This document shows positions 25,020 through 26,798 of a DNA stretch of 64,000 nucleotides, one piece after another. The stretch is from a virus, in the IMG/VR virus record IMGVR_UViG_3300032782_000001, positions 52,404 to 116,403 of that record. One strand, given 5' to 3'. The stretch's first letter is position 1; each line of letters begins with the position of its first letter. Under the pieces are notes generated by a model. It saw only the letters and a list, made by a program, of their open reading frames with translations, was not told the origin of the DNA and made no database searches. Made by a program: the position numbers and the translations under genes.

Positions 25020-26798
25020 CTACAGACGGATCCCCTCCCAGCTCGCAAGGGGGTCGGTGCTCCGATGCAGCTTCATCCCTGCATTCGCAAACTTGGCGAG
25101 TGCAATTTCCGTCTCCGGAGTGTAGTCCCGATACGGGGTGACGACGGAGCTCATACAATCCGTCAAGATGTGACACTTGGCGGCGAGCTTCGGATCCTGG
25201 ACGAGGATTTCCTCGAGCAAATCCTCGATGCTCGACTTGACGCAATGGGAAGCGGCCTGACCTGCGATGATGACGGCATCGTAGCTCAGAAGCTTCTTGA
25301 TGAACGACGTGTTCCTCTGCGCGAGAGCCTTGCCGTCATGCCGAGTAAGGACCTCGGGAGACAGAACGGAGTAGTTCTCGGTCAATGGGTGTCCACCCTT
25401 GACCTCACAGTTGGACTGCGTACCACGCGCCCATGCGTGGAAGAACTGTGCTTCGTTCAGGAGGCCGAGGAGTGAATGCCCGGGCGAACCGAGCAAGCAA
25501 TGGAACGGCCAGCAGAGGAGCGTATACTTGCCCTTCTTCTCCAGCTCCCTGCAATAATGCGCCATGTACTGCGTGAGCCACGTGTAATTGCCATCGCAGA
25601 GCCACGAGGCAACCGCCGGGTTGGGTCGAACCTTTCCCTTGAGGACGTGTTCGGTCGTGATCTCGGTGAAAGTCGGAAGATGATTCCCGTCCTCGCCGAG
25701 CCACATGGAACGCACGAAGATCTGCTGCGAGAAGTGCGTATCCATCGTGAACGTCATGTCCGTGATGTGATGCATGTTGCGATAGATCCAAGCTGCCTTG
25801 CGAGCCGAATCCTCGATCGCACCGCGCTGGCTCCTGCCACCAACGTAAAGAGACCCCTGCGGGTGCAAGAAGTCCTTCTGGTCGTCGATGTTCAAAACGT
25901 GAATCCGGAAAGCGTCCTTGCCAGATGGCTTGATGTCGTGCTGCTTGGCCCAGGCGACTGCATCGTCAAAGAGCTGATTGAGATTCGGAGCGTAGTTGTA
26001 AGACTCGGCATTCCTCGGGTCGAAGAACACCGGGAGAGGAAGTTCATCTTTGTGCTGTGACCTGGCCGTGATGGCGGCGAGCGCCGACGACGGGAGGGTG
26101 ACATTGATATCCATGATCCGATGCGGGAACTTGGACAGTGGCTCATCCGGCACGATGAATTCGGGAACGCCGCGCTGACCGCTCGTGTTGCGCGTGTAAC
26201 CGTTGCCCGTGTACTGCTCCTTGAGGTACACGGTGAAATAGAGGAAAGCTCGACATTCCTCGAGGGTGCCCTTGCTGGCTTGGAACCTGTCAATCGACAT
26301 GTAGCGTGGGTCTTTCGACCCAATATTGTCAACTTCCTTGAAGGAATACCCGAGCTTCGCCTCGATGCCAGGCAAATCCTCCGGCTGGAGGTTGCAAATG
26401 GCGGCCCGGTGAGGCTTGATCTTCGACCAGACCTCCGGGTACTTCTCCTCGACAATAGACAAGACGTTGTCCCATGTGCCGAGCTTGCAAGCTTGCTCGG
26501 GGAAGATGACGAGCTTGACGGTCGTCCCGCCCTTGATCTTGCTCTCGATGTAGGCGTCGTCCCAGCCGACCTTCTGCAGCATCTCATAGCCGTTGAGGCC
26601 GAGAAGGCCCTCGAGACCTGAAGAATCGACGAGGAAGACTACTCGTCGATTCGGGTCATCGGTGAGCCTATCGAAGGCTCGGGGATTCTGCTTGAGATTC
26701 CCGCGGGTGATGCGGCCTGCGAGACCCGTCACCTTCTGTGAAGCGGTCTTGCCGCTGGTGAAGAGCTTCTCGTATGCGTCGAGGATGGCGTTATTCAT
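25020..26798 (-). CDS. two-domain protein with C-terminal isochorismatase-family (nicotinamidase PncA-like) hydrolase
   Basis: VLNIDDQKDF (catalytic Asp) and AGQAASHCV (catalytic Cys) typical of PncA/isochorismatase cysteine hydrolases; N-terminal ~300 aa unassigned; AAGGA SD upstream. Confidence 0.55.
   Translation of the reverse strand: MNNAILDAYEKLFTSGKTASQKVTGLAGRITRGNLKQNPRAFDRLTDDPNRRVVFLVDSSGLEGLLGLNGYEMLQKVGWDDAYIESKIKGGTTVKLVIFPEQACKLGTWDNVLSIVEEKYPEVWSKIKPHRAAICNLQPEDLPGIEAKLGYSFKEVDNIGSKDPRYMSIDRFQASKGTLEECRAFLYFTVYLKEQYTGNGYTRNTSGQRGVPEFIVPDEPLSKFPHRIMDINVTLPSSALAAITARSQHKDELPLPVFFDPRNAESYNYAPNLNQLFDDAVAWAKQHDIKPSGKDAFRIHVLNIDDQKDFLHPQGSLYVGGRSQRGAIEDSARKAAWIYRNMHHITDMTFTMDTHFSQQIFVRSMWLGEDGNHLPTFTEITTEHVLKGKVRPNPAVASWLCDGNYTWLTQYMAHYCRELEKKGKYTLLCWPFHCLLGSPGHSLLGLLNEAQFFHAWARGTQSNCEVKGGHPLTENYSVLSPEVLTRHDGKALAQRNTSFIKKLLSYDAVIIAGQAASHCVKSSIEDLLEEILVQDPKLAAKCHILTDCMSSVVTPYRDYTPETEIALAKFANAGMKLHRSTDPLASWEGIRL

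Follow-up and report, generated by a model that had tools for sequence, protein, structure and literature searches.

A predicted nicotinamidase fusion within a kinase/PP2C/VWA operon of a huge-phage-like genome as a candidate entry enzyme of deamidating NAD+ salvage

Depletion of nicotinamide adenine dinucleotide (NAD+) is a major antiphage strategy, and three routes by which phages reconstitute this cofactor have been characterised experimentally: NARP1 (Adps and Namat), NARP2 (Nampt and Nmnat), and NARP3 (PnuC and NadR), none of which is deamidating or passes through nicotinate. Nicotinamidase is not mentioned in a 2022 survey of viral NAD+-ADPr systems. Recently the computational study of Li et al. 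2024 (Microbiome, PMC11662467) reported that jumbo phages encode salvage/Preiss-Handler genes, including pncB-nadD-nadE clusters, and mentioned phage pncA; a PncA-like gene whose role is unknown is present in phage G (PMC12484599), and PncA-like genes stand unannotated in the huge-phage genomes LR745208, LR756500, and LR756511. The present analysis concerns a gene at 25020..26798 (minus strand) of a 64,000-nucleotide stretch of viral DNA (positions 52,404 to 116,403 of the IMG/VR record IMGVR_UViG_3300032782_000001; the whole stretch is called the window below), which encodes a predicted nicotinamidase fused to a domain of an unannotated family and lies in an operon together with genes for a PP2C phosphatase, a kinase-like protein, and a von Willebrand factor A (VWA) protein.

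Several other described systems share parts of this locus. Bacterial NrtR regulons of NAD salvage were described by Rodionov et al. 2008 (PMC2330246), and operons of vWA, kinase, and PP2C genes are a known signalling theme, for example Deinococcus DRA0331-0334 (Kaur et al. 2020, PMC7159879). The PncA-Pnc1 family of nicotinamidases is represented by solved structures from Acinetobacter baumannii (2wta), yeast (Pnc1, 2h0r), Mycobacterium tuberculosis (PncA, 3pl1), and Drosophila (Naam, 9u8m), and the fold, the catalytic triad, and the metal site of these enzymes are common to the phage domain, for which the same reaction, nicotinamide to nicotinate, is expected.

The best overall explanation of the locus, to which a rough probability of 0.6 is given on the basis of sequence comparison and structure prediction, is a two-domain enzyme in a kinase/PP2C/VWA operon that would serve, with the nicotinate phosphoribosyltransferase PncB, as the entry of deamidating NAD+ salvage; this predicted salvage role is well supported. 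The fused nicotinamidase would hydrolyse nicotinamide (Nam) to nicotinate (NA) and ammonia; nicotinamide freed by NAD+ cleavage would thus become nicotinate, and phage PncB would convert nicotinate to nicotinate mononucleotide (NaMN), which constitutes the entry of Preiss-Handler-type salvage. The subsequent steps through nicotinate adenine dinucleotide (NaAD) to NAD+ would be performed by host NadD and NadE or by phage genes located outside the window. Like the components of NARP1, NARP2, and NARP3, the phage enzymes concerned may regenerate NAD+ from breakdown products or precursors, but the chemistry here would proceed via nicotinate and NaMN and would need NadD and NadE.

The open reading frame (ORF) was found where the initial annotation had placed it; it has an ATG start, 592 amino acids (aa), and a ribosome-binding site (GAAGGA) 6-7 nt upstream of the start codon. 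That this is a genuine gene and did not arise by chance follows from the 1697 homologues detected in a collection of 5.8 billion proteins, the best of them being 91% identical over the full length. At least 46 homologues have two domains (one at 91% and ~45 others at 42-64% identity), and the fusion does not stem from misassembly. A much larger set consists of ~350-aa proteins which are ~60% identical to the C-terminal 57% of the fusion protein, and several of them (Myxococcales, Haliangium, Elusimicrobia) carry the NCBI name nicotinamidase. These stand-alone homologues begin at query residue ~250, and residues 1-245 fold autonomously (predicted local distance difference test, pLDDT, 95.4 for this part alone; 93.5 for the AlphaFold2 model of the fusion protein); accordingly, the N-terminal unknown domain described previously is retained, while its size is reduced from 300 aa to ~245-250 aa. 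The N-terminal alpha/beta domain (N-domain; aa 1-245) thus corresponds to 26064..26798 and the nicotinamidase domain (aa ~246-592) to 25020..26063, both on the minus strand.

Residues ~250-592 are predicted to be a divergent long-form nicotinamidase (PncA/Pnc1), a reading which follows from the agreement of the profile blocks shared with M. tuberculosis PncA, the invariant triad and metal residues, and the fold matches of the AlphaFold2 model. The family profile aligns with M. tuberculosis PncA in three collinear blocks around D8, H71, and C138, where D8 corresponds to D305, H71 of WPPHC to H433 (in WPFHC), and C138 to C519. The catalytic triad is encoded on the minus strand at 25884-25886 (D305), 25398-25400 (K467), and 25242-25244 (C519), K467 being assigned from its motif (EVKGG...ENYS) and strand position and not from a printed alignment. 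The metal ligands D353, H355, and H433 are arranged as D353-T-H355 plus H433 and correspond to D49, H51, and H71 of the M. tuberculosis enzyme. In 62 sequences no variation occurs at any of these six positions (D305, D353, H355, H433, K467, and C519). Both motifs quoted in the initial annotation exist and fall on invariant columns (I304-D305-D306-Q307-K308-D309-F310 and G513-Q-A-A-S-H518-C519-V520); its claim of a C-terminal PncA domain is borne out by fold, triad, and metal site, and the catalytic cysteine is in place.

In Foldseek comparison with PDB ranks 1-16 were all occupied by nicotinamidases (E 1e-9 to 2e-5; target-normalised TM-score 0.56-0.82), including those of A. baumannii, Drosophila, yeast (Pnc1), Pyrococcus horikoshii, Leishmania, Streptococcus pneumoniae, and M. 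tuberculosis, and other cysteine hydrolases ranked below these 16. The PF00857 profile, by which the assignment was to be checked, did not reach its gathering score on the fusion protein (13-14 bits versus a cutoff of 27, E=0.04-0.095), and scans with Pfam, NCBIfam, PHROG, and PADLOC gave no match above threshold; some homologues of the domain do have a precomputed PF00857 match. In comparison with the PncA-Pnc1 family the phage domain is longer (~345 aa, with an N-terminal helical extension), carries ~70 extra residues inserted after the DTH motif and before the catalytic Lys, is only 15-19% identical to the solved enzymes, with a score below that of Pfam gathering, and is joined to a 245-aa unknown domain, always inside a PP2C-kinase-VWA operon.

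Judging from its gene junctions, the fusion gene is the third member of a translationally coupled operon on the minus strand, in which the order is PP2C, kinase-like protein, nicotinamidase, 91-aa ORF, VWA protein, and nucleotidyltransferase (NTase). The first gene encodes a PP2C phosphatase (28681..29514; PF13672, 67 bits) which is syntenic in all related loci. The second (26823..28820, with a likely true start at GTG 28688 giving 621 aa) encodes a protein resembling Ser/Thr kinases that has a Zn ribbon and is rich in beta structure towards its C-terminus, and this gene immediately precedes that of the nicotinamidase in all cases; its kinase matches are weak and include RSK kinases (E~7e-4) and PD-T4-6/PglW, with Pkinase also "weak" in one related phage locus (L009). 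Downstream of the fusion gene the translation reveals a 91-aa Cys-rich (CPVC) ORF (24715..24990), in whose position the 91%-identical relative has a 92-aa ORF, and then follow the VWA gene (23915..24778, or 23915..24718 from its likely start at 24718; PF00092, E=3.8e-4), whose product has MIDAS-like DxSxS (VDDSGS) and TDG motifs, and the NTase gene (23436..23918) with the HIGH motif GCFDLFHYGH (PF01467, 46 bits). The PP2C stop overlaps the likely GTG of the kinase gene by 8 nt, gaps of 24 nt and 29 nt separate the kinase from the fusion and the fusion from the 91-aa ORF, and the 91-aa ORF/VWA and VWA/NTase pairs each overlap by 4 nt. Scanning of the operon for promoters and terminators returned no more sites than were found in shuffled sequence. 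An NT5C-family 5'-nucleotidase-like HAD protein is encoded further downstream (22497..23141, minus strand; PF06941, 46.6 bits; phrog_420, phrog_2643), but this gene is not syntenic in other loci and its operon membership is uncertain.

The window conforms to the vWA-kinase-PP2C operon pattern by the PP2C match of 67 bits, the weak but consistent kinase matches, and the VWA match at E=3.8e-4 with its DxSxS and TDG motifs. The same trio as in the operons compiled by Kaur et al. is seen, namely, a kinase with Zn ribbon and beta-rich C-terminus, a PP2C, and a stand-alone vWA protein; here, however, the trio invariably encloses a nicotinamidase, and neither FHA protein nor GTPase accompanies it. 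Presumably the kinase, PP2C, and VWA proteins gate the nicotinamidase by phosphorylation. Neither this operon nor the existence of the N-domain as a separate widespread family had been noticed in the initial annotation.

Related loci were labelled L001-L043, L001 being the 91%-identical relative. The order PP2C-kinase-nicotinamidase-VWA is kept in >25 of them and occurs throughout the related loci of the fusion lineage (L001, L009-L013, L015-L017, L020, L023, and L026). A pattern scan of IMG/VR yielded 10 jumbo-phage contigs of 81-545 kb with the long-form nicotinamidase (L031-L040), where the kinase gene is directly upstream in 10/10 and PP2C and VWA genes are present wherever the sequence extends; in these loci the nicotinamidase is stand-alone, and the N-domain is found only in L034, as a separate gene. 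VWA orthologues, 47-90% identical, directly follow the nicotinamidase gene in nearly all loci. The four-gene core with the long-form nicotinamidase was also seen in almost every bacterial locus examined, for example in Haliangium (L041) and in L043, where it is preceded by NadE-NrtR-Nudix genes. According to these sequence comparisons the four-gene module would be the core unit and the N-domain an accessory gained in one sublineage.

A further bacterial contig (L042) has genes for a TIR-domain protein and a Tox-REase-2 nuclease (3193..5886) immediately upstream of long-form nicotinamidase and VWA genes, which hints at a conflict-system context.

The second enzyme of the proposed route is encoded in the window at 42836..44182 (plus strand). 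The gene is a genuine class II nicotinate phosphoribosyltransferase (PncB), as had been stated: TIGR01513 (456 bits, cutoff 297), NF009131 (436 bits, cutoff 330), PF17767 (111 bits), and PF04095 (45 bits) all score above their cutoffs or gathering scores, and the best PDB matches are nicotinate phosphoribosyltransferases (NAPRTases), the closest being that of Enterococcus faecalis (2f7f, 243 bits). It is also the only phosphoribosyltransferase, by equivalog model a NAPRTase, among the window ORFs scanned, where a search that was not exhaustive returned no NARP markers.

Nicotinamidase is linked to NAD genes in the relatives as well. PncB lies 5.6 kb downstream of the fusion in L001 and inside the same island in L002/L034, L011/L020, L013, L016, L017, L026, and L036/L037, often together with NadE, NadK, Nudix, and NrtR genes. 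The island of L011/L020, on a 633-kb contig, comprises NrtR, PP2C, kinase, fusion, VWA, NAD kinase, ADP-ribosylglycohydrolase, Nudix, PncB, a phosphoribosyl pyrophosphate (PRPP)-synthetase-like (PRPS-like) gene, and glutamine-dependent NadE; the islands of L013, L016, L017, and L026 resemble it, and L013 and L026 have a second, stand-alone N-domain gene. In L002/L034 (IMG/VR contig) the N-domain, NadE (TIGR00552, 174 bits), PncB (TIGR01514, 399 bits), and nicotinamidase are separate genes of one cluster, and therefore the N-domain is tied to PncA independently of the fusion, which represents a Rosetta-stone link. In L035 a NadE gene precedes the module and a genuine NadD, related most closely among solved proteins to NaMN adenylyltransferases (E=8e-20), is located two genes after the VWA gene. 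Such loci resemble bacterial NrtR regulons in having NrtR (Nudix-winged helix-turn-helix) at the head of a pncA, pncB, nadE, prs-like, and Nudix cluster, and differ from them in the inserted kinase, PP2C, VWA, and N-domain genes and in being carried on huge-phage-like contigs; NrtR itself was not found among the window ORFs scanned against Pfam. PRPP could be made from ADP-ribose by the Nudix and PRPS-like enzymes of the richer islands, and neither product of NAD+ cleavage would then be lost; in this potential to recycle ADP-ribose the related islands recall the NARP pathways.

Several side observations belong to these islands. The L035 NadD gene is at 12811..13395 of a 318-kb IMG/VR contig, where the nicotinamidase gene is separated from the VWA gene by a 181-aa ORF (11029..11574) that looks macro-domain-like by eye. 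The L011 PRPS-like gene (15450..16418), directly after PncB and before NadE, has its matches among ordinary PRPP synthetases, at a low ~90 bits, and a check of its affinity to the NARP1 enzyme brought up no Adps entry; if it makes ADPR-PP, a nicotinate version of NARP1 that bypasses NadD would be possible. The gene of 186 aa that precedes PncB in the islands, considered as a NadD candidate, proved to be a Nudix hydrolase.

Some observations weigh against the salvage reading. The PncB gene of the window is 16 kb from the nicotinamidase gene and on the opposite strand and is therefore not co-transcribed with it. No NadE homologue was detected in the 64-kb window by tblastn and PP-loop scan, and no NadD-type NTase motif was present there, so the pathway is incomplete in this stretch and NAD+ formation depends on unseen genes or on the host. 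The N-domain is absent from the module in 9/10 IMG/VR loci, and many bacterial stand-alone N-domain genes have no NAD genes nearby. Finally, so strict an embedding between kinase and VWA genes is unusual for a housekeeping salvage enzyme, and the purpose of the module may not be NAD+ restoration. Of the Preiss-Handler route suggested in the initial annotation, the PncA and PncB assignments are supported, and the two genes are also linked in relatives, while a complete route in the window is not supported.

The function of the N-domain is the weakest point of the interpretation. The family comprises at least 542 clusters at 50% identity, most members being stand-alone proteins of ~230 aa with some tandem duplications; a few are joined to PPP-type Metallophos phosphatases or to an inositol-monophosphatase-family (IMPase) domain, and nicotinamidase is attached in only 12/162 representatives examined. 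No Pfam, NCBIfam, or PHROG model matched the family, comparison of 106 members with Pfam at E<=1 gave only noise (DUF3793 in 5 members), and sequence and profile searches of PDB returned no meaningful match. Neither was a recurrent partner found among the genes around stand-alone N-domain genes in bacteria, and the contig pattern scan with C-domain patterns returned no N-domain locus. Residues R183, G198, G200, and E213 are invariant and R29, W109, P121, and F185 nearly so. A weak structural resemblance over 90-115 residues to NAD+ users of the ADP-ribosyltransferase (ART) fold (SPN NADase, pertussis-like toxins, DarT, RES, and Tpt1) concerns the N-domain only. Its conserved Arg, Trp, and Glu on strands (R29 on strand 1, T108-W109 after strand 3, and E213 on strand 5) would be compatible with R-S-E or H-Y-E placement; the N-domain faintly resembles ART folds, which is a lead and not a classification.

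The N-domain could bind a nicotinamide nucleotide (NAD(P)+, nicotinamide mononucleotide (NMN), or nicotinamide riboside (NR)) or cleave its N-glycosidic bond and pass nicotinamide to the fused amidase. Its position upstream of a nicotinamide-consuming domain, the invariant Arg/Trp/Glu, and the phosphoesterase fusions speak for such nucleotide handling, which is the best supported of the roles considered but is proposed only tentatively and has somewhat less than even chances; a purely regulatory N-domain is the main alternative. An ATP-dependent biosynthetic role is argued against by signal-peptide-like N-termini in at least 19/157 representatives. The domain was also considered as an analogue of the missing NadD and rejected by these N-termini, by the secreted PPP-phosphatase fusions, and by the fact that most modules do not have it. 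As a separate observation, the N-domain occurs in an amoebal protein (P0270; Acanthamoeba castellanii ACA1_086530, 318 aa), where it seems to be partially duplicated; its presence there may result from bacterial or viral transfer.

According to the principal rival for the whole module, it removes nicotinamide or consumes NAD+ in conflict, with no rebuilding. In one form the N-domain would act as a NADase or ADP-ribosyltransferase of ART-like type, and the amidase, by hydrolysing the nicotinamide set free, would lift product inhibition and keep the reaction from running backwards. In the other form the kinase-gated nicotinamidase would strip nicotinamide and so block NARP1 Namat and NARP2 Nampt of competing phages, or host enzymes, and its owner would keep using nicotinate via its own PncB. 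Both forms taken together are considered unlikely. The most novel scheme, hardly less doubtful as a joint proposal, sees PP2C-kinase-nicotinamidase-VWA as a hitherto undescribed phosphorylation-gated "nicotinamide switch" serving both sides of the NAD+ arms race and the N-domain as a divergent ART-like N-glycosidase. If this is true, triggered conversion of nicotinamide to nicotinate would starve NARP1 Namat, NARP2 Nampt, and the host, and an owner with PncB (in relatives also NadE, NadD, and NadK) would still rebuild NAD+. The N-domain would then release nicotinamide from NAD(P)+, NMN, or NR, which would make the fusion a two-step pyridine-nucleotide-to-nicotinate enzyme, and it could be the gene for NMN nucleosidase, an activity for which no gene is known.

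Under the deamidating salvage reading the NaMN adenylyltransferase step is left to NadD, and it might instead be supplied within the operon if the NTase at 23436..23918 (minus strand) were a non-orthologous NaMN adenylyltransferase, so that operon and PncB would encode Nam to NA to NaMN to NaAD. The HxGH nucleotidyltransferase of the initial annotation was confirmed as a PF01467 member (46 bits), a superfamily it shares with NadD; the gene is translationally coupled to the VWA gene by the 4-nt overlap and syntenic in L001 and L009/L010, the genuine NadD of L035 lies two genes after its VWA gene, and no canonical NadD was seen in any fusion-lineage island. However, the best NCBIfam models are rfaE_dom_II (80 bits, below the 181-bit cutoff), HldE, TagD, and PPAT, the best solved relatives are cytidylyltransferases only, and no NadD/NMNAT model or structure matched at E<=0.01. 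In BLASTP with the L035 NadD only 34 residues around HxGH align (E=0.004), the synteny is restricted to the closest relatives, and the richest NAD islands (L011, L013, L016, L017, and L026) are without such an NTase. The adenylylating role proposed earlier is therefore not upheld, as it follows from position alone, that is, from the place of the L035 NadD; by its sequence relatives the NTase is HldE-domain-II/TagD/ethanolamine-phosphate-cytidylyltransferase-like and not NadD-like, and the rival is decidedly improbable.

It can also be assumed that the C-terminal domain is an isochorismatase-like amidohydrolase for another amide (a modified base, a carbamoyl compound, or a peptide-linked amide) with an incidental link to NAD. 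The sub-threshold PF00857 score, the 15-19% identity of this divergent long form to solved nicotinamidases, and the presence of biuret hydrolase, maleamate amidase, and N-carbamoylsarcosine amidase among the fold matches would be consistent with this. Nevertheless, the top 16 fold matches are nicotinamidases without exception, the gene is repeatedly found near NrtR, PncB, NadE, NadK, and NadD, and the nicotinamidase-typical Asp/His/His metal site is invariant, which makes the assumption very unlikely. Such a site is an established mark of nicotinamidases and not of other members of the isochorismatase-like family.

Equally remote is the view that the window is a cellular genome fragment (e.g., of CPR/Patescibacteria or another metagenome-assembled genome, MAG) with ordinary cellular NAD salvage, which could appeal to the Haliangium module and to several related contigs deposited as bacterial MAGs (Gammaproteobacteria, Patescibacteria, and others; probably mis-binned huge phages), but is opposed by 44 tRNA genes in 18 kb with homing-endonuclease-like genes and EF-Tu and M16 peptidase homologues, by an RtcB gene, by a tail-fibre-like collagen protein (phrog_6320, E=6e-36), by relatives in IMG/VR viral contigs of 81-545 kb, and by the L009 neighbourhood, which is a phage replication module including PhageMetallopep.

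With the deamidating salvage reading retained, the novelty of the locus can be specified. That a PncA/PncB-based phage route would be a new variant holds with respect to the characterised NARPs, none of which deamidates, and does not hold with respect to the jumbo-phage Preiss-Handler genes reported in 2024 and the PncA-like gene of phage G; the salvage idea is thus not new. The window and its relatives share with the "NAD-jumbo phages" (PMC11662467) clustered huge-phage genes of deamidated NAD+ salvage, with PncB here and NadE and NadD in relatives; a nicotinamidase within the cluster, the N-domain, and the kinase/PP2C/VWA operon are not described in that study, and the window has only PncA and PncB. 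The four-gene nicotinamidase module and the N-domain family appear undescribed, and no literature was found on nicotinamidase linked to vWA/kinase/PP2C genes or fused to another domain in phages.

According to the window locus and ~25 related ones, huge phages encode a nicotinamidase for the entry step of a deamidating route, frequently in company with PncB, NadE, NadK, NadD, and genes for ADP-ribose processing, by which the two products of NAD+ cleavage would both be recycled. No published explanation was found for the invariable wiring of nicotinamidase to kinase, PP2C, and VWA genes in phages and bacteria or for the well-folded, unannotated domain family fused to it in one lineage; the module could represent a regulated node of NAD+ metabolism not described before, and a function could be assigned to this family.

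The 44 tRNA genes (45088..62762, plus strand) cover 18 amino acids, no Trp or Tyr tRNA being seen in the window, and are interrupted by protein-coding genes. Inside the array an EF-Tu homologue (49184..50365, plus strand; GTP_EFTU 172 bits plus domains 2 and 3) is followed by a GIY-YIG endonuclease-like gene (50434..51330, plus strand), and an M16 (insulinase/pitrilysin-type) peptidase with both domains is encoded at 54375..55643 (plus strand). A 180-aa ORF between tRNA genes (45941..46483, plus strand), in which an HNH-like pattern (CQKCG...HHRD...CANCH) was recognised by eye, probably encodes a homing endonuclease. Neither capsid nor terminase genes lie in the 64-kb window, and the only virion-like gene seen there encodes the tail-fibre-like protein, the larger of two collagen-triple-helix-repeat proteins (36585..39500 and 39538..40521, plus strand), which matches tail-fibre PHROGs.

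In the 63%-related phage contig of L009/L010 an NAD+-dependent DNA ligase (16773..17918; PF01653), which is an NAD+ consumer, is encoded no more than 5-10 kb from the module, as are ribonucleotide reductase and further replication proteins. An 868-aa major-vault-protein-like protein (30600..33206, minus strand; MVP shoulder 101 bits, Vault_3 repeat), which is kept in L001, is encoded in the window ~1 kb upstream of PP2C. An RtcB RNA ligase is encoded at 16789..17997 (plus strand; 418 bits), and its orthologue in L001 (121..2439, 772 aa) contains a ~350-aa insertion which splits the RtcB match and looks like an intein or homing element.

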